The position numbers were made by a program, and so were the translations under genes. Shown in pieces: positions 6,464 through 16,741 of a stretch of DNA of 27,540 nt; positions within the stretch are counted from its first letter, which is position 1, and every line of letters starts with the position of its first letter. Source of the DNA: Candidatus Bruticola sp. GTDB taxonomy: Bacteria > Vulcanimicrobiota > Xenobia > Xenobiales > Xenobiaceae. Location: positions 1 through 27,540 of the forward strand of contig JBJEGD010000041.1 in assembly GCA_051874735.1 (NCBI GenBank). The letters are read 5' to 3'. Below the pieces are notes generated by a model that saw only the letters and a list, made by a program, of their open reading frames with translations, was not told where the DNA came from and made no database searches.

Positions 6464-7708
6464 GTGCAGACTATGAACAGTATAAGTTCTTCTTCAATAA
6501 ATACGAATATTGTCCACGTAGCGCCTCCAGCTGCTACGGTCAGCAAGCACCCAGATGGTGAATCTGCCTCTGTTCAGAGAATATCTCGGGATAGTGCAGT
6601 TTTAGAGGTAATCTCTCCTCAGGATACTCTCTCTGTAACTTCATCATCCGCTCAAACGAAAGATCATACGCCTTGTACATCCACAGAGTCGAATGTAGAA
6701 GCCCCCACCAAAAAGCAAAACAAAAGCAAGAAAAGCCCTAAAAAATTGGTCAAAAAGGGGATCAGCTTATATAAAGAAGCTCGCCACTCTCCTTTAACCT
6801 TTGTAAAAGATCACGCTAAGAAAGGTGTGCCTGCGGCTATTGCTTTAGGAGTAGGCGCTGCAGTTCTGTGCGGAGAAGCTTTCGACGACGAGTGCATCAG
6901 CGACATAAAAGATCTGGCGGAGAATGCAGTCACCAAGGGTGGCGGCATAAATAAAAATCTGAAATTTTTTAACCAATTATCCGAATTTTCTGGTGTCAGC
7001 GCCGACATATGCTGCGGCACTGGAGGGGCGATACTGGCAGGACAAGGGCTGTACAAAACGGGAAACGGCGTAGTAAAAACTATTAAAGCCGTTAAAAAGA
7101 AAGATAGTCACGCTGTATTAAGCGGCTTGCGAACAACTGTGGCAGGCGTGCGCAAAACTTTAAACGGAGCGGTTGTGGGCACTATAAGTCTGGAAGGCAA
7201 GCCAGAAAAAGCGGCCAAATTTATCAAAAAAACCGTACTGCCTCCCCTGCGCAAAGCGGCTGCAGCCCTTAACATAGGTGTTGGTATAAAAAGCATCCAA
7301 AAGGGCATCAAAGCTAAAAGCAAAACTAAGGTTATAAATGGTGCTCTTGATCTGGCCTATGGTTCTGCAGTGGTCGTTTCTATTGCTGTAGGTGGCCCCG
7401 TAGCGGCAGCAGCTTGCACAGGTTTGTTAGCTGTCAAAACCGGCTGGTCATGGACAAAAAAAATCAGCCGCTGTGTTAGACGCGATCAGGAAATTCAAGA
7501 GCAGCGTCAGGCTGAACGCAGTCAAAGAGTTCAAAATCCGGAGTTGCCAGAAGAGTCAAATAAAGCGGGAAAAGTTCCCAACAACAGTAAGGCCCTCCCT
7601 GCTGAGCAAAGTAAAAAACTAGCTAAGGCCAACAAAGCTAAAAAAGCAGTGCTAAAATTTATTGCCGGTATTACATCCGACGAAAAATTACCCAAAAACA
7701 TCATTTAA
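6464..7708 (+). CDS. Hypothetical Lys-rich protein with Ser/Thr-rich N-terminus and Gly/Ala-rich hydrophobic helices
   Basis: 414-aa ORF filling the gap between dipeptidase and hemW; hydrophobic stretches GVPAAIALGVGAAVLCG and LAYGSAVVVSIAVGGPVAAAACTGLLAV. Start may be ATG 6473. Confidence 0.7.
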   Translation: MQTMNSISSSSINTNIVHVAPPAATVSKHPDGESASVQRISRDSAVLEVISPQDTLSVTSSSAQTKDHTPCTSTESNVEAPTKKQNKSKKSPKKLVKKGISLYKEARHSPLTFVKDHAKKGVPAAIALGVGAAVLCGEAFDDECISDIKDLAENAVTKGGGINKNLKFFNQLSEFSGVSADICCGTGGAILAGQGLYKTGNGVVKTIKAVKKKDSHAVLSGLRTTVAGVRKTLNGAVVGTISLEGKPEKAAKFIKKTVLPPLRKAAAALNIGVGIKSIQKGIKAKSKTKVINGALDLAYGSAVVVSIAVGGPVAAAACTGLLAVKTGWSWTKKISRCVRRDQEIQEQRQAERSQRVQNPELPEESNKAGKVPNNSKALPAEQSKKLAKANKAKKAVLKFIAGITSDEKLPKNII

Positions 7709-7792: not shown

Positions 7793-9043
7793 TCAGCATA
7801 ACGGAAACTGAGACTTATTTTGTGGCAAATTTTTCTGGCAAAATACCCTGTCAAATGGTGAGAATTCTAACAAGCGTACAAAAATTTCGTTAGAAAGATC
7901 GCGTCCTCGTCCAGTTAAGCGCAAATGATAGCCGCAACGGGAAAAAAGCTCATCGGGAATTTGGTGCCAAAACTCTTCGTTGGCCCGCCTTAAACCACGC
8001 CTAAATTGCGGGGGAAACTTTTTAAACACCCGATCAAACGAGATACCGCGTCGGCAACGCAGCTGAAGCATAAAATCTTCACGTAGCCGAGCTGCCCACC
8101 CTAAACGCTCTGCGCTCTCTAAAATTTCTGTTCCCTGGCGGACAGCCTGACTGTACCAGCTAGGATTCGATAGACGTCGAAAGCGCCATCCTCTATAATA
8201 GGAAACAGCCCCAGCCCCTAAACCTAAATAAGGCAAATTAGCCCAATAAACTTTATTGTGAAAGCATTGATATCCGCGGCGGGCCCAATTAGAAATTTCA
8301 TAGTGTGCAAAATCGGCTTGGCGCAGTAAACGCTTTAATACTGTTTCCATCTCTGCCACTTCATCTTCAGAAGGCAGTTTCATTAAACCTTTGTCCAGAG
8401 CACGCTGCAGTGGCGTTCCCTCTTCAACAGAAAGGGCATAACAAGATATATGCTCAGGATGGAAAGATAAAAGTCTCTCTAAGGTATTTTTCCATATTGA
8501 TACACTTTGACCAGGCAAACCGTAAATAAGATCGATATTAATATTGCGGAAACCAGCTTGACGAGCCCAGTTTAAACAATTCTCGACATCCTGCGCACTA
8601 TGCACACGTCCTAGCTGCTCCAGCAACTTATCGTCGAGCGATTGTACGCCTAAAGAAAGACGGTTAATGCCGCAGCGTCTCATTTGATGCAATTTTTCTA
8701 AGCTGAGAGTGGCAGGATTAGACTCTGAAGTAATTTCTGCCTCTTTAGCTAGGCCGAAACTTTCTCTAACTTGACTGATAACCTCAACAAGCCAATCTGA
8801 TGGCGCTAGGGTCGGCGTACCACCTCCCAAATACAAACTGCGCAATCCACTCGAACAAATTTTTACCTGTTTAGCACTTAATCTAATATCTTGAAGCAGG
8901 CTTAAATGATAAACCCGGCGCTGCTCCAGAGAAATTCCTCCCAGAGTGTTAAAATCGCAGTAAATACAACGACGACAGCAAAAAGGAAAATGTATGTAAA
9001 GTGAAAAGAGCCCGTCGGCTCTTTTAGGTAAATCGTCAGCCAT
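7793..9043 (-). CDS. hemW: Radical SAM heme chaperone HemW (HemN-like)
   Basis: SLYIHFPFCCRRCIYCDF (CxxxCxxC), GGGTPT, NRLSLGVQS, DLIYGLPGQ, YEISNW and HNKVYW (HNxxYW typical of HemW). Confidence 0.88.
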   Translation of the reverse strand: MADDLPKRADGLFSLYIHFPFCCRRCIYCDFNTLGGISLEQRRVYHLSLLQDIRLSAKQVKICSSGLRSLYLGGGTPTLAPSDWLVEVISQVRESFGLAKEAEITSESNPATLSLEKLHQMRRCGINRLSLGVQSLDDKLLEQLGRVHSAQDVENCLNWARQAGFRNINIDLIYGLPGQSVSIWKNTLERLLSFHPEHISCYALSVEEGTPLQRALDKGLMKLPSEDEVAEMETVLKRLLRQADFAHYEISNWARRGYQCFHNKVYWANLPYLGLGAGAVSYYRGWRFRRLSNPSWYSQAVRQGTEILESAERLGWAARLREDFMLQLRCRRGISFDRVFKKFPPQFRRGLRRANEEFWHQIPDELFSRCGYHLRLTGRGRDLSNEIFVRLLEFSPFDRVFCQKNLPQNKSQFPLC

Positions 9044-9052
9044 ATCCTCAGA

Positions 9053-9631
9053 CTACTTGTAACGCCCACGCGCCCCATAATCGATATAGCGGCGACTATT
9101 CCCTCCCAAGTTGTTATCTTCGCGGACTTTGCTATCGGAAGAAGAATCGCCGTCCAATCCACTCAAAGCAGAGACGTTTTTCTCAGAATCGGGATGGTAA
9201 GAAACTTTAACTTCGTTGGGATAGCACAAAATAACTGAATCGGTAATTTTGGCTAAACAGCCATTAGTACAGTATAAAATTCCTGAAAGAAAATCTAGCA
9301 TGCTCCTTCTAAGCTCTTTACTAGTCTCCTGAAAGTTAATTATCACACACTTTTCTTGCTTAATAGCATTAGCAATAGCGACACACCAATTTGACTTATC
9401 GTTAGGTTCTATACAATATACATTTATTATGACTATTTCTAAATTTTTCGCTAACTTTGATACCTGTTCCGACATTGAATCTGCATTACCAGTAATAGCT
9501 CCGCGCACTTCAGTCGCCTTATTTTCTGATCCAACATCACTCACAGCAGCTTCTAAGGTTTCTTCTGTATCTTCAATATGTCCGCTACCTACAAAAGCAC
9601 GCACCAACCTACCCATAAAGCTGCTAGACAT
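9053..9631 (-). CDS. sepF: Cell division protein SepF
   Basis: VIINFQ...RRSMLDFLSGILYCTNG.LAKITDSVILCYPNEVKV matches the SepF core; start moved to ATG 9631 behind a GGAGGAG RBS, giving an amphipathic N-terminus MSSSFMGRLVRAFVG; directly downstream of yggS. Confidence 0.82.
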   Translation of the reverse strand: MSSSFMGRLVRAFVGSGHIEDTEETLEAAVSDVGSENKATEVRGAITGNADSMSEQVSKLAKNLEIVIINVYCIEPNDKSNWCVAIANAIKQEKCVIINFQETSKELRRSMLDFLSGILYCTNGCLAKITDSVILCYPNEVKVSYHPDSEKNVSALSGLDGDSSSDSKVREDNNLGGNSRRYIDYGARGRYK

Positions 9632-9650
9632 ATCACTCCTCCGCCAATTT

Positions 9651-10421
9651 TTAAACAGATTGGAAGCCGTTTTCTCTATTGCCAAAAATAGCTCTGCCTA
9701 CCCTTACAAAAGTAGCTCCTTCTTCAATAGCTATTCTGTAATTGCAGCTCATTCCCATTGACAGTTCCTGACCATCCCAAAAAGAATACCTGCGAGCTAA
9801 CACTTCCTGAAGCAGTTCCCGCATACAGCGAAAATAAGGACGACTGCCTTCAGAATCAGAAGTTGGCGGAGGAATAGTCATCAATCCCACCAAACGAAGA
9901 TGTTTAGGCTCATAAGACTTCAAATCGTCTAACAAAGCAAAAAGATTTTCAGGATCGACGCCACTCTTTGTAGCCTCCCGACCTAAACGGATCTGAATAA
10001 GTCCGGAAATAACACGGCCACGTTCTGCACATCGCCTATCAATGTGCTTAATAATATCAGCTGAATCTAGAGAGTGGATAACGGCTGCCAGATCCGCAGC
10101 AGCATTTGCCTTGTTTTTCTGGATATGGCCTATCAAATGCCAATTAACTGAGGGAAGCTGCTCCGCTTTAACTTTAGCTTCCTGTATATAGTTTTCTCCA
10201 AAATCACGCAGCCCTAAACGAGCGGCTAATTCCAAAACCTTGAGAGGCTTTGTTTTTGAGACCCCAATCAGCACAACTGAATTGGGGTCTCTGCCGCATG
10301 ATAGACAAGCACACCTAATAGAATCGCGCACTTGAACCAAACGGGCGCGCAGAATTTCGGGTGAGAAATCAGCTTCTGCCACAGAAATTTCTGAATTCAA
10401 GACTCCGAATCTGCCGTCCAT
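9651..10421 (-). CDS. yggS: PLP homeostasis protein YggS/PLPBP
   Basis: GVSKTKP (PLP Lys), FGENYIQE, WHLIGHIQKNK, LSMGMS, GATFVRVGRAIFG. Confidence 0.95.
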   Translation of the reverse strand: MDGRFGVLNSEISVAEADFSPEILRARLVQVRDSIRCACLSCGRDPNSVVLIGVSKTKPLKVLELAARLGLRDFGENYIQEAKVKAEQLPSVNWHLIGHIQKNKANAAADLAAVIHSLDSADIIKHIDRRCAERGRVISGLIQIRLGREATKSGVDPENLFALLDDLKSYEPKHLRLVGLMTIPPPTSDSEGSRPYFRCMRELLQEVLARRYSFWDGQELSMGMSCNYRIAIEEGATFVRVGRAIFGNRENGFQSV

Positions 10422-10425
10422 ACTT

Positions 10426-12633
10426 TTATAACCAGTTCATGATAGTATCGTTGTCGCTAATTTCCGAGTTATTCTGTTCTTGCAGATGGATTTCAGTATC
10501 CACAACAGGGAAATCTTGTACAGCAGTCTCTTCATGGAACTGCTCTTCGTCTTTAGAAATTAAACCACGGGAATAAAGAGCACCCATGGACTGGTTAAAG
10601 CTCTGCATACCTTCAACAGCACCCTGCTGCAAGTAAGCGGCTAAGCCGTCCAAATTATCGTTCAAAATCGAATCAGAGACGGCCATATCCACTACCAGAA
10701 CTTCAACTGCAGGTACACGTCCCTTATCATCTGATCGGGCAATGAGTTTCTGAGATATCACACCACGCAGACAACTGGCCAAGAGCAAGCGGAACTGCCT
10801 CTGAGTTTCTCCGGTAAAGGTTGACAACATACGGCGCACCGCCTGAACGGTATCAGGCATATTCATAGCTGCCACTACCAAATACCCTTTCTCAGCTGCA
10901 GTTGTAGCAGTCATCAAGGTATCTGCATCTTTGATGTCACTGATAACTAAAACATCGGGATCCTGACGCATAGCCATATTGATAGCGTCATTGAAACTTT
11001 GGGTATCAGTACCAACTTCACGCTGAGTAATTAAAGAATTGACCGTCTTGTGATAATACTCTATGGGGTCTTCTACCGTTACGATATGGCATTTACGGTT
11101 ATTGTTAATATAATCAACAATTGAGGCCATAGTAGTAGACTTACCAGAGCCTGTGGGACCAGTAATGATAATCAGACCGCTTTGGTACAGGGAAAGCTTC
11201 TTCAGAATTGGAGGCAACCCTAATACGTCGAAATCTAATACATCAGTGCGCTGCATATGGAAATTAGCACTTAAATTGCCTCTCTCCAAGAAAGCGTTGA
11301 CGATAAAACGGGTTCCATCAGAAGCGACATGAGCGAAGGAAACTTCATGCCCTTTCCTGACTTCTCTCCTCTGTTCACGAGTCATGGCAGGGTAGACCAA
11401 GGCCTTAGTATCATCTTGAGCCAACTTAGTATCGCCGACAGGAACAAGATCGCCACTCAAACGAACAGTAGGAGTATTACCTACCTGCAGGTGCAAATCT
11501 GAAGCCCGATGGCTGATCACAACCTGGAGAATATCATCGAGATCGTAGCCAAGATTTTCAGTAATAGCAGGGATAGCTTCATCTTCTTCAACAGGCTCAG
11601 CTACAGTCTTAGGAGCGACAGTACCGACAGAAGCAGCAGCACTAGCAGCCTGAGCTACAGTAGCAGCAATCTGAGGAGCAGCTTCCACTGCACTAGCTGC
11701 GGCCACAGTAACAGCTTCAGCACTCTTGCCGATATCGCGCACACGCTCATCAAGCTGTTCAACTAGACGCATGGCCATTTTAATAGCACTCAAATGCTTG
11801 TCTATTTCACTCTGAGATTCTTCAGCCTTAGCTATAGCATCTTCAAATTTCGGAGCATATCCTTCAAGCTTGCTCTGCAGAGCTTCTACGCCATCACTAA
11901 CAGCTTTAAGCTTATCCGCAGCCTGATCAGCGCCGTTCAAAGACTCACGTAAAGAATCGAGAGAAGATTTGAGCTCAGCGACTTCGAGCTTAAGTGAATC
12001 TATATTTTCCTCGACTTTCTCTTCGAGAGCAGTCGATTTCTTTTCAGTCTCACTGTTAAGCTCTTCTTTTAATAGATCAAAACTGGTTTTCAATTCGATC
12101 GATTCAGTCTTGATGCGCTCTTCCATAGCCTCAGCGGCGGCGAGCTGCTCTAATTTGTAGTTCTCAAAATCTTCATTTCTAGTAAAGGTTGAAGCTTGGC
12201 TAACCTCTTCTTTAAGGGCATCGAGACGCTCACCAAAAGAAACTTCTAAAGCAGCTAACTTCTCTGCTGCACCACTGCTGACAGCACCTAAATTATCTAA
12301 TTCAGTACGGACAGCCTCATTATTGGCAGCGAACTCATTGCTTTTAGCCTCCAAAGCCTCTTCAACGACCTTGAAACGCTCCCCCATTTCATCGAGAGAG
12401 CCTTGCACTTGAGCTAAGTCTTCAGCCGAAGCTCCTTCAGCTATTTCATCAAAGTCCGCTGAGAGACGTTCGAAGCGACCACTTAGTTTCAAAATTTCTT
12501 TACTAGTTGTATCGCCTACTAAGGAAATATCTTCCAGTCCGGCCTCTAACCTAGAGAGGCGGCCTTCTACTGACATATCAACATTGCTATCTAATAAATC
12601 GCTATCTGATTTGCTACGAGGTCTTCTGGCCAA
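10426..12633 (-). CDS. PilT/PilU-like ATPase domain (degenerate) fused to a long N-terminal coiled coil
   Basis: C-terminal half: ASDLHL, GPTGSGKST, TVEDPIEY, QREVGTDT, RQDPDV, GMQSFNQ. N-terminal ~300 aa is Glu/Leu/Lys/Ala heptad-like, followed by an Ala-rich linker. TTG start behind GGAAGGA RBS. Confidence 0.85.
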   Translation of the reverse strand: MARRPRSKSDSDLLDSNVDMSVEGRLSRLEAGLEDISLVGDTTSKEILKLSGRFERLSADFDEIAEGASAEDLAQVQGSLDEMGERFKVVEEALEAKSNEFAANNEAVRTELDNLGAVSSGAAEKLAALEVSFGERLDALKEEVSQASTFTRNEDFENYKLEQLAAAEAMEERIKTESIELKTSFDLLKEELNSETEKKSTALEEKVEENIDSLKLEVAELKSSLDSLRESLNGADQAADKLKAVSDGVEALQSKLEGYAPKFEDAIAKAEESQSEIDKHLSAIKMAMRLVEQLDERVRDIGKSAEAVTVAAASAVEAAPQIAATVAQAASAAASVGTVAPKTVAEPVEEDEAIPAITENLGYDLDDILQVVISHRASDLHLQVGNTPTVRLSGDLVPVGDTKLAQDDTKALVYPAMTREQRREVRKGHEVSFAHVASDGTRFIVNAFLERGNLSANFHMQRTDVLDFDVLGLPPILKKLSLYQSGLIIITGPTGSGKSTTMASIVDYINNNRKCHIVTVEDPIEYYHKTVNSLITQREVGTDTQSFNDAINMAMRQDPDVLVISDIKDADTLMTATTAAEKGYLVVAAMNMPDTVQAVRRMLSTFTGETQRQFRLLLASCLRGVISQKLIARSDDKGRVPAVEVLVVDMAVSDSILNDNLDGLAAYLQQGAVEGMQSFNQSMGALYSRGLISKDEEQFHEETAVQDFPVVDTEIHLQEQNNSEISDNDTIMNWL

Positions 12634-12760
12634 AGCTTAATTCCTTCCATCCCTTGAGATTGCAGGCGAAACGTTCTGTAAATTTCAACTCTTTACCTGC
12701 AGAATATACCCTGCTTTAAATGCATTAAAACTTGTCTTATACGGCAGTTAAAGTACAGTG

Positions 12761-14338
12761 CTATTCCAAGACGCCTACAGCCTCCTCAACCTCATGAAGG
12801 ATAGAACCGCTGCTAATCAGTTGACGGGCAAATTCAATGTCACGGTACGGCGGACGATCAAACTCTAAAGGAGCCACTACTTGACGCACGGCGCGAAAAG
12901 CCGCTTCTGTGCCGGGGCCAAAACTGATAGGACGGCGTTCTTCTAAGGCCTGAGCCGCACAAATGAGTTCACAAGCCAGAATAGTTTCCAAATTATCAAC
13001 TATTTTGGTTAATTTATGAGCAGATGTAGGCCCATGACTGTTATGATCTTCTTGACCTCCTGAAGTAGGCACAGTATCAACACTAGCCGGATGGGCCAAC
13101 ACTTTATTTTCATTAACTAAAGAAGCAGCCGCATATTGAACTATCATATACCCAGATTCAACACCTGGAGCAGAAGCCAAAAACGCCGTTAAATGATCGG
13201 TACCGCAAACTAATTTGTCGCAGCGACGCTCGGAGATAGTACCAATCGGACACATGGCGATACAAGCAGTATCTAAAGCCATTGCTAAGGGGGCACCGTG
13301 GAAATTTCCAGCACTTAGAATCAGGCCGTGAGGATGTTCTATTTTATCTTTTTCTTCCAAAAATTCTTCAGGAATAACCAAAGGATTATCAGTGACAGAA
13401 TTCATCTCTCGCTCTAAAACTTCAGAAGCGAAACGCCACCCTTCTCTGGCAGCTCCATGAACCTGAGGCAGACACCGCAGCGAATAAGGATCTTGCACTT
13501 TATCACAATTTTTATGGGAAAGCACTAAGCTGGAGCCCTCAGTGATGCGACGCACGTTGCGGGCTGATTGTGCTTGACCTAAATGAGGGCGCAACTTCCC
13601 GACCATAGGATGCAAATTAGCAACCGTACCTAGCATAGCCTCCACGGTTATAGCTCCAACAATATCGGCTATTTTTAACAGGCGGCCGGCCCTGTTCATA
13701 GCCAAACTGCCCACAGCATTCATAAACTGAGTACCGTTAATTAAAGCCAGACCTTCCTTAGCAGCTAATTGAAAAGGCTTGAGACCAGCTGCAACCATAG
13801 CCTGCGATGCCTCCATTATCTGCCCTCGATATAAAACCTCTCCTTCACCAATTAACCCTAAAGCGACGTGGGATAAAGGAGCGAGATCTCCGCTGGCTCC
13901 TACAGAGCCATGTGAAGGCACTCTAGGCAAGACGCCAGCATTAGACATGTCTATTAAAGCCTGCAGCAGCTCAGGACGACATCCTGAAAACCCCTTAGCC
14001 AAAGCATTAACTCTAAGAGCGATCATAGCTCTGACTACCGCATTGCTGACGTAGTCGCCAACTCCGGAAGAGTGGCTGAGTATTAAATTCCGCTGCAAAT
14101 TACGTAAATTTTCAGGATTAATTTTTACATTAGCTAAACGGCCGAATCCGGTATTAATACCATAAGCCGTATCGCCGCTGTCAATAAGATCTTCCACCAC
14201 TTGGCGAGATTTTTTGAGAGCCGGCCTTACCTTGTCACTCAAAACTAAAGGCGCCCCTAAAGCGGCTCTCTCCACCTGGGCTAGAGTTAAACTTTCCCCA
14301 TCAAGAACTAAAGGCTGATCCAAATCAATCTGCCCCAC
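12761..14338 (-). CDS. hutH: Histidine ammonia-lyase
   Basis: YGINTGFG, LILSH (His-specific SH), GSVGASGDLAPL (MIO-forming ASG), KEGLALING, QDPYSLRC, GNFHG, QEDH. Confidence 0.93.
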   Translation of the reverse strand: MGQIDLDQPLVLDGESLTLAQVERAALGAPLVLSDKVRPALKKSRQVVEDLIDSGDTAYGINTGFGRLANVKINPENLRNLQRNLILSHSSGVGDYVSNAVVRAMIALRVNALAKGFSGCRPELLQALIDMSNAGVLPRVPSHGSVGASGDLAPLSHVALGLIGEGEVLYRGQIMEASQAMVAAGLKPFQLAAKEGLALINGTQFMNAVGSLAMNRAGRLLKIADIVGAITVEAMLGTVANLHPMVGKLRPHLGQAQSARNVRRITEGSSLVLSHKNCDKVQDPYSLRCLPQVHGAAREGWRFASEVLEREMNSVTDNPLVIPEEFLEEKDKIEHPHGLILSAGNFHGAPLAMALDTACIAMCPIGTISERRCDKLVCGTDHLTAFLASAPGVESGYMIVQYAAASLVNENKVLAHPASVDTVPTSGGQEDHNSHGPTSAHKLTKIVDNLETILACELICAAQALEERRPISFGPGTEAAFRAVRQVVAPLEFDRPPYRDIEFARQLISSGSILHEVEEAVGVLE

Positions 14339-14373
14339 TGTGTCACACCTTTCTAAATAGAACTTTTGCCTGT

Positions 14374-15114
14374 TTATTGCAAAAGTTTGACCATCTGCAC
14401 CCGTTCATTCTGATATCCGGCTTCTCGATATAAACTAATAGCGCCGGTATTACAACAGGTTACAGTCAGTCCGATATGCGTCAGTCCTCGCTCTAAAGCA
14501 GAAGCTTCGACAGCTGCAATCAATCGATTGCCCACACCGCGACGACGATATTCAGGTTTTACCGCTAAATCGAAAATCCAGGCTTGCTTTTCTCCTGTTA
14601 AAAAATCGGTCACATCTAGATTAGCTGCGATATGGCCTACAATTTGACCAGCCTTATTTTTAGCCACAAAAACGGTAGCTATTTCCTTAGCTATCTGCCA
14701 GTCCAGATTTCGCATATCTTCTCGCCTAATACGCGCAGCCAAAATAATATTTCTGCGTCGTAAGGGCGACATTGAACTTCCCACCGAAGCTGCGGAAAGA
14801 TCTATGATTTCTGGTAAATCTGATCTCTCAGCTCGGAAAATTTTTATTTCTTCCAGTTCACCGCTTATTGATTCAGTTGTACTGCGCAAGCATTTGCGAT
14901 CGCCCGCCTTAGCCTGGCTTGCCTGAGATTTAAGAGGATAATTTGGAATAAATTCTTTTTTTTTCATTTTGTTTATATCCGACTGCAACCGCACCGCTAA
15001 ATTTTCTTGCTGAACGTTACTTTCAGCAAGAAAATTATAGACGCTTTCATGTGCGGAGGAGCAGACCTCGATCGAGGGATAGGGTAGCTGCTTATTCCCG
15101 AACTCCCTGCTCAC
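14374..15114 (-). CDS. GNAT family N-acetyltransferase with N-terminal extension
   Basis: WIFDLAVKPEYRRRGVGNRLI (acetyl-CoA motif A), LTV..CNTGAISLYREAGY. Start uncertain. Confidence 0.85.
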   Translation of the reverse strand: MSREFGNKQLPYPSIEVCSSAHESVYNFLAESNVQQENLAVRLQSDINKMKKKEFIPNYPLKSQASQAKAGDRKCLRSTTESISGELEEIKIFRAERSDLPEIIDLSAASVGSSMSPLRRRNIILAARIRREDMRNLDWQIAKEIATVFVAKNKAGQIVGHIAANLDVTDFLTGEKQAWIFDLAVKPEYRRRGVGNRLIAAVEASALERGLTHIGLTVTCCNTGAISLYREAGYQNERVQMVKLLQ

Positions 15115-15670
15115 GCTTTATAAATGCATAAGAATCGAACTCGAGATTGCGCCCATTCATTTCATCCTCAAAAGTATTGACTAAGAAATAAAGGCTGCCA
15201 AGCCAACTGCGAATGTCCTCAAAAGCTTTATCAGAAAGGGTTGACTGACCCTTACCGACATGTTCTTGGGCAACGGTCAAATCTTTATAAAGCATGCACC
15301 ACAAAACTGCTATATTGTGATGGTTCCTCTTTAATACTTCATCTTCATAATTGGACAAGGAACGTTGTCCGCCCCGAATTTCTCCCTCAACCGTTTGCCA
15401 AGCTTTAATAACTTTTTCATAGCGTTTATAAAAACGAGTGTCTTCGCTTCTAGAACTGCTGTTGCTTTCCACATTAACTTGCTCGTTAGTGACTTCAGAG
15501 TCATTAGTAGCTGTTTTTCCGGCAGATTTAGGATAAGCTGAAGCCTTAGGATAATACTGACCCGCTTTAGGATAATTCTGGGCCTGAGCTGAATCCGACA
15601 TAAAGCTCAGGGGCACGGCGCAGACACCGGCGAATAAAGCAAGAGCTACAAACTTGCGCATATTGTTCAT
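15092..15670 (-). CDS. Hypothetical secreted protein with three YPK repeats
   Basis: ATG 15670 behind AAGGAG; signal peptide MNNMRKFVALALFAGVCAVPLSFMSDSAQA (AxA); NYPKAGQYYPKASAYPKS. Confidence 0.72.
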   Translation of the reverse strand: MNNMRKFVALALFAGVCAVPLSFMSDSAQAQNYPKAGQYYPKASAYPKSAGKTATNDSEVTNEQVNVESNSSSRSEDTRFYKRYEKVIKAWQTVEGEIRGGQRSLSNYEDEVLKRNHHNIAVLWCMLYKDLTVAQEHVGKGQSTLSDKAFEDIRSWLGSLYFLVNTFEDEMNGRNLEFDSYAFIKREQGVRE

Positions 15671-16016
15671 AAAAGCGTACTCCTTCTCGGGGCGCATTCA
15701 TTTTCAACCTCAGCGGAAAGCGATTTGCAAGCAAGAGATCGGTTAAACCGATGGACTTAAATTTATCCGCAGGTCTTTTAGAATGGACAGCGCCGCCTCC
15801 ATACAGTTTTAAATTGTTCAGGACGGGAAATTCTTCAGCTTTCTCCGTTGGCCTCCCCAACCTGCTAAACAGAATAAGAGTTTGTATATTTGTGCACTTC
15901 AGGACAACCCCTATACAAACTAGATAGACATAGTTATAATTTTTTATCAAATAAAAGACTTATCAGTTGCTCTGCTTAACATGATACATCGAACAAAACT
16001 TACAATCTCCCTAAGT

Positions 16017-16418
16017 TTACTGCAGTAACACCTTGAGAGGCTTGAAATTTAAAGAACGGCGGCGCATTTCCGGCTCTAGTTTTTTAGCAATTCGATAATT
16101 AATACGTTCACATTGTTGAGCCTTTATATGTATATTTTTATCGGGCAAAAGATCTTTTTGGCTGGTCAAACTATGGCAAAACTCAACAGCTTCTACACTG
16201 AGGTTGTAAGTATCTAACAGTTTTTGGTTACTCATAGAACTTATTTTTTCAGGGGTCAGCTCTTTATATCTGTCTTTACCGCACTTAGTAAAACGCTCAA
16301 GGTCTTTTTCTAAATTCCCCTCATTACTCCATACGGGCAAATTAGAACCTATTATCAGCAAAATGACAGAAAATAAAGTTAAGAACAGGGATCTCTTCAA
16401 AAATTTTTTACTGTGCAT
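16017..16418 (-). CDS. Hypothetical secreted protein
   Basis: Basic N-terminus plus hydrophobic signal (SLFLTLFSVILLIIG); GGAG upstream; C-terminal EPEMRRRSLNF resembles the neighbouring gene's C-terminus. Confidence 0.65.
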   Translation of the reverse strand: MHSKKFLKRSLFLTLFSVILLIIGSNLPVWSNEGNLEKDLERFTKCGKDRYKELTPEKISSMSNQKLLDTYNLSVEAVEFCHSLTSQKDLLPDKNIHIKAQQCERINYRIAKKLEPEMRRRSLNFKPLKVLLQ

Positions 16419-16741
16419 GATATTTTTATCGCTCCAAAAGATGTAATTTAAAATAAATGTAATTTACCGGAGCTCCGTCTATGAAACCGACGCCCAGCCA
16501 TTAAGACGGTGGGCGTACCTGACAGGCATATTCCACCGCTCAGAGCATTATTTGCCAATTTTAGGGTTAATACTCCTGTCGTATAACTGCAGGCCGGTAG
16601 CTGATTGACCTAGAAAAATCGCCAGTTGCTACCCGCATAACATATGCGTAAATATTATATAAAAAAGACAAATATTTACAATAATGTCACCAAAACTAGA
16701 CACTTATACTCTTTAATTAGGTAGATGCAGGAGGTTATACA

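Follow-up and report, generated by a model that had tools for sequence, protein, structure and literature searches.

A PilT-family protein with a decaying active site and a conserved C-terminal tail stands beside yggS and sepF in the Xenobia

What would a relative of a pilus motor do among cell-division genes? PilT is the textbook pilus-retraction motor. In Candidatus Bruticola sp. (assembly GCA_051874735.1), a PilT-family gene, here called pilT*, heads a compact cluster with yggS, sepF and hemW on contig JBJEGD010000041.1. We analyzed positions 1 to 27,540 of this contig (hereafter the window), which constitutes contig 41 of a 2.47-Mb, 42-contig metagenome-assembled genome that we treated as a gut member of the Xenobia (Eremiobacterota/Vulcanimicrobiota). 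The four co-oriented minus-strand open reading frames (ORFs) at 7793-12633 are separated by gaps of 4, 19 and 9 nt (10422-10425, 9632-9650 and 9044-9052); these are exactly the genes and the spacing that an initial annotation had described when it proposed that a pilus-motor derivative is linked to division. Judged from its sequence, PilT* is not the cell's pilus-retraction motor, its motor activity presumably having been lost, and we lean slightly towards reading it as a non-motor, PilT-derived scaffold or switch.

The relationship to PilT was clear. The PilT* core matched PilT chains in the PDB at E values of 1e-65 to 1e-73 with 34-38% identity, and Foldseek aligned it with PilT4, PilT2, PilU and PilT at E values of about 1e-33 to 1e-38 (target-normalized template modelling (TM) scores of 0.65-0.78). 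Both the Walker A motif (GPTGSGKST) and the Asp box (VEDPIEY) were intact. The Walker B motif reads SDIKD where the canonical form is GEMRD, placing an Asp at the position of the catalytic Glu, and the His box reads GYLVVAAMNM as against the canonical GHLV..TLHT, with both histidines replaced. In Pseudomonas aeruginosa, PilT no longer functions once the Walker B Glu or the His-box His is mutated. Furthermore, the segment MAVSDSILND of PilT* aligned with the pairnlire/tairnlire segments of solved PilTs, which we take to be the AIRNLIRE motif, positioned from the alignments to PilT structures in the PDB. AIRNLIRE was absent in 23 of the 23 orthologues shown, and a close form, AVRNLIRE, was present in two of the genome's own PilT paralogues. 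Canonical PilT/PilU genes, five PilC-type platform genes and one PilM lie elsewhere in the genome, indicating that retraction is covered without PilT*.

We scored six catalytic residues (the Walker A Lys, two Asp-box Glu, the Walker B Glu and two His) in 46 yggS-linked orthologues across the phylum. All six were kept in 16, and the other 30 had lost at least one. The replacements varied by lineage: SDIKD with Y/F..N in genera g1 and g4, GDLRD with K/R..S in family f2, DPLPN in g8, and a Walker A K to R change with L..T in g7. A quick maximum-likelihood tree, in which many forks were weakly supported, required at least four changes of catalytic state. In this tree, the 46 yggS-linked proteins and five other tail-bearing paralogues formed one clade (Shimodaira-Hasegawa-like approximate likelihood-ratio test, 99) that excluded seven canonical PilT/PilU paralogues of the same genome as well as E. 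coli YggR, which has canonical motifs and no tail. The PilT*-like homologues were labelled Xenobia or Eremiobacterota. On these sequence comparisons, the PilT* clade is a separate, lineage-restricted and new variant of the PilT family, characterized by an N-terminal arm, a C-terminal tail and a decaying active site.

A homologue search with residues 352-735 was dominated by tandem double-PilT fusions and left the known range of the family unchanged. Many of the proteins P0036-P0052 and P0121-P0213 are such fusions of ~710-770 aa with two full ATPase cores per chain, under labels that include Lentisphaeria, Myxococcota, Pseudomonadota and Victivallaceae. A related PilT group of ~445-486 aa (P0054-P0070), with canonical motifs and a core 50-53% identical, closes with another acidic-hydrophobic tail, ...(D/E)N(I/L)LD(L/M)L.

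The tail of PilT* is among its best-kept features. A W followed by L or M closes the protein in 44 of the 46 yggS-linked orthologues, usually as D(T/S)LM(N/S)WL, and both exceptions fall in family f12. In an alignment of 30 full-length homologues, down to 33% identity (A1), W734 and L735 were at least 90% conserved, as were a few arm positions such as E66-L73 and A287-D295. The ending [LMIV][LMIV]xW[LM] occurred in only two of the genome's 4546 stop-to-stop ORFs of at least 80 aa, namely pilT* and a PilT-like gene on contig 18. In the AlphaFold2 (AF2) model, the tail was disordered (predicted local distance difference test (pLDDT), 27-38), hydrophobic at its very end and preceded by acidic residues. 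We considered whether such a tail might act as a degradation signal at the C-terminus or insert as a short patch into the membrane, so that what is conserved would be protein level or membrane association. Hydrophobic tags at the C-terminus steer proteins to ClpXP/Tsp-type recognition, and C-terminal helices bind FtsA and MinD to the membrane; the hydrophobic, disordered LMxWL-COOH end common to two paralogues would suit either role. However, the acidic residues before it are unlike membrane-targeting helices, and the gene context points to no protease or adaptor, leaving this explanation quite improbable. Another candidate, that the tail copies the FtsZ C-terminal peptide, was dropped, as the genome's FtsZ ends ...EFYEPAIRRRRPSVQ. 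When the SepF core dimer (residues 60-150, two copies, alignment A2) was modelled together with the PilT* tail (residues 690-735, A1), both scores were 0.00, the mark being 0.32; run without controls, the prediction weighs neither way.

The contig-18 gene sharing this tail proved to be a second PilT derivative. It encodes a short paralogue in which Walker A, Asp box, Walker B and His box are all degenerate. In 17 of 17 orthologues examined, Walker A reads GxPRxGK[IVLF]N, the other three motifs are degenerate and the tail ...PLM(S/N)WL is kept (PLVAWL in one). In 16 of 17 loci the gene follows rpoZ directly, and in 14 it stands next to ftsK, mostly divergently; the three loci without ftsK beside it belong to genus g8. 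Across the order, 37 of 41 genomes gave a match at E <= 1e-60, some of which were cross-matches to PilT*; on the scale of the phylum, clear orthologues were found in families f1-f3 only. Hence each of the two tail-bearing PilT derivatives is accompanied by a conserved neighbour from among the division genes, sepF in one case and ftsK in the other, which is evidence of context drawn from relatives that are not independent samples. The ftsK-side paralogue thereby adds a second, independent contextual link to division genes. One could go further and picture the two tail-sharing PilT pseudo-ATPases as a division-site hub in the Xenobia, in which their rings, perhaps mixed, would bind a common divisome or envelope partner and couple septum formation, chromosome clearance and/or pilus placement without motor work; we regard this extension as speculative and unlikely.

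The ftsK gene at this locus (L116) appears as two adjacent plus-strand ORFs, 10085-12193 (702 aa, with a four-transmembrane region) and 12210-16502 (1430 aa). The alpha, motor and gamma domains all lie in the 1430-aa piece, whose middle is variable and very long, and relatives gave repeated partial matches at these ORFs.

Ahead of the core, PilT* carries an N-terminal extension of ~350 residues. The AF2 model, built from 30 homologues (mean pLDDT 68), placed helices at residues 22-65, 70-147, 154-233 and 236-303, followed by a disordered linker, the core and a disordered stretch comprising the last 40 residues. The linker is also the least conserved segment (mean column identity 0.26). A separate model of residues 1-310 gave three long helices with a low predicted TM score, suggesting an extended arm rather than a globule. 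The initial annotation had located a coiled coil on the PilT itself, and this is borne out to the extent that the predicted arm is coiled-coil-like, a label resting on the long helices and on weak SMC/apolipoprotein-type profile matches. Foldseek found no match to the arm model in the PDB at E <= 10, and the best score of an ESM Atlas feature search with residues 1-350 was 0.80, which is chance level. The N-terminus itself is basic, with MAR(K/R)PR or MARRRRRR conserved across the order. Because this N-terminus is conserved across orthologues, it supports the TTG start codon of pilT* (12631-12633); most orthologues begin with TTG or GTG, a conserved non-ATG start.

For comparison of gene order, DNA around the PilT-like gene or yggS was fetched from relatives and the window's six proteins were placed by tblastn. 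The initial annotation had staked its proposal on synteny in relatives, and the order proved conserved: pilT* and yggS were adjacent in 40 of the 41 assessable Xenobia-class genomes (17/17 with a yggS locus in f1, 5/5 in f2, 15/16 in f3 and 3/3 in f4/f5). The sole f3 exception was G032, in which a contig end falls at yggS; in the f1 genomes G013 and G017, the window queries matched neither pilT* nor yggS. A metagenome scan with the Xenobia homologue P0053 returned three loci, two of them on short contigs that keep the synteny (hutH-pilT*-yggS and pilT*-yggS). Since it recurs across a whole class of genomes, the arrangement is far beyond chance. In other classes of the phylum, a PilT gene lay directly upstream of yggS in 12 of 27 assessable genomes (f6-f10, f12, f14 and f19) and ~1.6 kb upstream in two f13 genomes; no PilT gene was found upstream of yggS in f11, f15, f16, f17, f18 or f20. 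Directly after yggS, sepF followed in most Xenobia-class genomes with pilT*-yggS; it was undetected by tblastn near yggS in G014 and G034, and its position was not assessable where contigs end in G012, G039 and G098.

Such persistence could be purely historical, with PilT* serving as an accessory or regulatory ATPase of a type IV pilus or type II secretion-like system, in the manner of PilU or extra PilTs, and having no tie to yggS, sepF or division. Several observations would fit: a pilT/yggS neighbourhood with no known division role exists in E. coli and, according to PMC9605639, in phytopathogenic proteobacteria; the active site is canonical in the 16 orthologues noted above; and five PilC-type platform genes offer many candidate machines. 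On the other hand, catalytic decay has occurred repeatedly and independently alongside a strictly kept tail and N-terminus, throughout the class pilT* is co-oriented with yggS at a distance of 4 nt whereas the E. coli pair is divergent, and the second paralogue has its own conserved division-gene neighbour. We therefore hold a purely historical association to be doubtful, while giving it serious consideration.

Further variation was seen around this core order. A tblastn match to GNAT lay upstream of (hutH-)pilT* in most loci examined. In many genomes, though not in every one, hutH separates GNAT from pilT*; several members of the window's genus have no hutH. In one f16 locus (L094, genome G051), GNAT-GNAT-hutH immediately precedes yggS and no PilT gene intervenes, indicating that the hutH-yggS linkage persists without pilT. 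In G030 (L053) and G031 (L058) of genus g8, ~1.6-1.8 kb separate yggS from sepF, which implies an inserted gene. In f15, none of 45 genomes, many closed or nearly closed, matched the PilT-like query at E <= 1e-45, and yggS-sepF was kept in 6 of 6 genomes examined.

The combination of gene contexts had been described by the initial annotation as a merger of E. coli-type pilT/yggS...hemW with Firmicutes/Cyanobacteria-type yggS-sepF, and both are indeed present. Its statement that yggR, yggS and hemW are neighbours in E. coli also stands; in K-12, yggR is divergent to yggS-yggT-yggU-rdgB-hemW. According to PMC9605639, the genes found clustered with those for YggS/PLPBP include proC, genes of division and the cell wall, and genes of motility and secretion; the yggS-sepF context is known in Firmicutes and Cyanobacteria, pipY-sepF-proC is typical of cyanobacteria, and phytopathogenic proteobacteria also have a pilT/yggS neighbourhood. 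Given that pilT-yggS, yggS-sepF and yggS...hemW are each old and widespread, the simplest reading of the "hybrid" order is an ancestral neighbourhood that was retained rather than newly assembled, with sepF in place of the proteobacterial yggT and the genes after it. A 684-aa protein, P0086, joins shikimate-dehydrogenase/ProC-type NADP oxidoreductase domains (PF08501, PF03807 and PF01488) to a canonical PilT in one chain, and such a fusion could connect pilT with the proC-type genes of yggS clusters.

Among the division proteins, the window's sepF encodes the only SepF in the genome. Its core (residues 74-143) matched the solved SepF chains 8hzt/3zih at an E value of 3e-7, preceded by an N-terminal amphipathic-helix-like segment and an acidic linker and followed by a variable tail. 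The N-terminal pattern is MSSSFMGRLVRAFVG, and M..L(K/R)(K/R)FF recurs in 33 orthologues, a sequence pattern typical of a membrane-targeting helix. SepF evolves fast, with 46% identity between this genome and its closest relative against 91% for PilT*. FtsZ is encoded on contig 38, FtsA on contig 26 and a weak DivIVA-like gene on contig 2.

This inventory bears on the model that grows out of the initial annotation, in which the PilT with its coiled coil would mark a pole or septum in a DivIVA-like role, attach to the FtsZ-SepF ring and place type IV pili relative to it. The conserved pilT*-yggS-sepF order and the second tail-bearing paralogue beside ftsK are consistent with it; FtsZ, FtsA, a single SepF and type IV pilus parts are all encoded in the genome, and the pilT-ftsA-ftsZ operon of C. 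perfringens (PMC6958937) provides a precedent. Nevertheless, no DivIVA domain was detected on PilT* (PF05103 was not among the 18 Pfam families at E <= 0.01 in the search that covered it), the tail is unlike the genome's FtsZ C-terminal peptide, SepF stays beside yggS in families without the pilT gene, and the pilus-positioning step is unsupported. We consider such a landmark unlikely.

The degenerate site, the missing AIRNLIRE, the conserved tail and the ftsK-side paralogue together shift the reading from a pilus-motor derivative to a non-motor scaffold. A scaffold or switch is more likely than a motor because the termini and the ring fold are kept while the active site decays repeatedly. On this model, PilT* would still form a PilT-type ring that binds ATP, the Walker A motif being kept, and hydrolyses it poorly or not at all; its arms and tails would dock onto a conserved partner, for which the ring would act as scaffold or switch. 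The most likely arena would be the division site or the surrounding envelope machinery, because the tail-sharing degenerate paralogue adjoins rpoZ and ftsK; this putative tie to the divisome is one of gene context.

Several points weigh against the scaffold reading. The Walker B replacement of Glu by Asp is conservative and a congener, G002, keeps the Glu, so some residual ATPase activity may be present. With 16 of 46 orthologues looking fully catalytic, the ancestral protein may well have been an active motor, and a scaffold role may be restricted to some lineages. Instead of docking, the tail could mark the protein for degradation or anchor it weakly in the membrane. Moreover, yggS and sepF are still adjacent in families without an upstream pilT (f11, f15, f17, f18 and f20), indicating that SepF has no need of PilT*. 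The position of hemW after sepF, seen in 16 of 17 f1 genomes and in G040 (f4), is limited to f1 and that one f4 genome, with none in the fetched f2 and f3 regions. Conservation of gene order among relatives is non-independent evidence of function, and a promoter and terminator consensus scan gave counts at background (12 versus 14.8 and 12 versus 8.6 expected).

Based on spacing and conserved order, the GNAT-hutH-pilT*-yggS-sepF-hemW string is probably a single transcription unit (Table 1). The sepF ORF spans 9053-9685, and its true start is most likely the ATG at 9631. Upstream of GNAT, on the same strand, is an ORF without a family assignment (15092-15697). HemW matched both PF04055 and PF06969 (HemN_C) and has a C-x3-C-x2-C motif in PFCCRRCIYC. 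A 414-aa Lys/Ala/Gly-rich ORF with no Pfam match, at 6464-7708 on the plus strand, converges with hemW, and a terminator-like hairpin (7681-7664) lies between the ends of the two.

Table 1 Features of the gene string, segments of PilT* and the second tail-bearing paralogue. Positions refer to the window unless a genome (G), contig (C) or locus (L) is given.
Feature	Position	Strand	Basis
GNAT acetyltransferase with N-terminal extension, the string's conserved first gene	14374..15114	-	PF00583, 69.2 bits
hutH, histidine ammonia-lyase	12761..14338	-	TIGR01225, 629 bits; 127-nt gap to pilT*
pilT*, PilT-family protein, 735 aa, TTG start	10426..12633	-	TIGR01420, 357.5 bits vs cut-off 319.1
PilT* N-terminal arm, residues 22-303, four long predicted alpha-helices	11725..12570	-	AF2, DSSP
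PilT* linker, residues 304-350, Ala/Val/Pro-rich, disordered	11584..11724	-	pLDDT 30-44
PilT* ATPase core, residues 365-696	10546..11541	-	TIGR01420
PilT* Walker B segment DPDVLVISDIKD, catalytic Glu of GE(M/L)RD to Asp	10927..10962	-	alignments to PDB PilT, orthologues and paralogues
PilT* His-box segment EKGYLVVAAMNMPD, H to Y and H to N	10852..10893	-	alignments to PDB PilT, orthologues and paralogues
PilT* C-terminal tail DTIMNWL-COOH	10429..10449	-	W[LM] terminus in 44/46 yggS-linked orthologues
yggS, pyridoxal phosphate-binding protein (COG0325), 256 aa	9651..10421	-	TIGR00044, 189.9 bits vs cut-off 106.25
sepF, 192 aa from ATG 9631	9053..9631	-	PF04472, 53.4 bits vs cut-off 27
hemW, radical-SAM haem chaperone, 416 aa, the string's last gene	7793..9043	-	TIGR00539, 270.6 bits vs 205.4
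Short PilT-like paralogue, 407 aa, ends DTPLMSWL	G000:C18:38916-40145 (= L116:7917-9140)	-	tail-pattern scan of genome ORFs

If the scaffold reading is true, the PilT* clade would clearly exemplify the recruitment of a secretion-type ATPase as a scaffold. With both paralogues standing beside division genes, the unexplained linkage of pilT, yggS and division genes in E. coli, plant pathogens, cyanobacteria and C. perfringens becomes testable. Should the link be only historical, the ancestral pilT-yggS-sepF...hemW order would still tie together the proteobacterial and the Gram-positive/cyanobacterial contexts. The tail, the N-terminus and the missing AIRNLIRE offer a signature by which such proteins could be annotated as something other than 'twitching motility protein PilT'. 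Literature on pilT/yggS/sepF and on pili in these lineages surfaced no description of the PilT* family or of the arrangement, and a search joining Eremiobacterota with pilT found nothing. A confirmed role of this kind, proposed here from sequence and context, would surprise specialists on pili or division.

Compared with the PilT/PilU retraction ATPases (TIGR01420; PDB 3JVV, 2EWV, 6OJX and 5FL3), PilT* has the same two-domain fold, scoring above the family cut-off over residues 365-696, and the same intact Walker A and Asp box. It differs in adding the ~350-residue arm and linker and a ~40-residue C-terminal extension ending DTIMNWL, in the Walker B change from Glu to Asp, the loss of both His-box histidines and the lack of AIRNLIRE, and in belonging to a clade apart from the genome's canonical paralogues. 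A precedent for docking on the tail is cyanobacterial Hfq, which docks on the C-terminus of PilB1 (bioRxiv 10.1101/2021.10.08.463751): the C-terminus of a type IV pilus ATPase holds a small partner at the pilus base, although PilB1 is an extension ATPase and not a PilT. The Hfq model PF17209 was unmatched in the genome, yet the same model also misses the cyanobacterial control.

The E. coli neighbourhood likewise has a PilT-like gene beside yggS and hemW a few genes downstream; there, however, yggR is divergent from yggS, has canonical motifs and bears neither arm nor tail, and yggT, yggU and rdgB stand where the window has sepF. With the ylmE(yggS)-sepF clusters of Firmicutes and Actinobacteria and the pipY-sepF-proC clusters of Cyanobacteria (PMC9605639), the window shares a sepF immediately after yggS, and its SepF has the usual N-terminal segment and core. 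Unlike these clusters, it has no proC, yggT or divIVA downstream, a PilT-family gene before yggS and hemW after sepF. Finally, C. perfringens co-transcribes pilT with ftsA and ftsZ for a reason that the authors call unknown (PMC6958937). In that operon, a PilT-family gene is co-oriented with division genes, as in the window, with co-transcription shown for C. perfringens alone; its PilT is taken as a working retraction ATPase with ftsA and ftsZ as partners, whereas the window protein, degenerate and extended, stands beside yggS and sepF.

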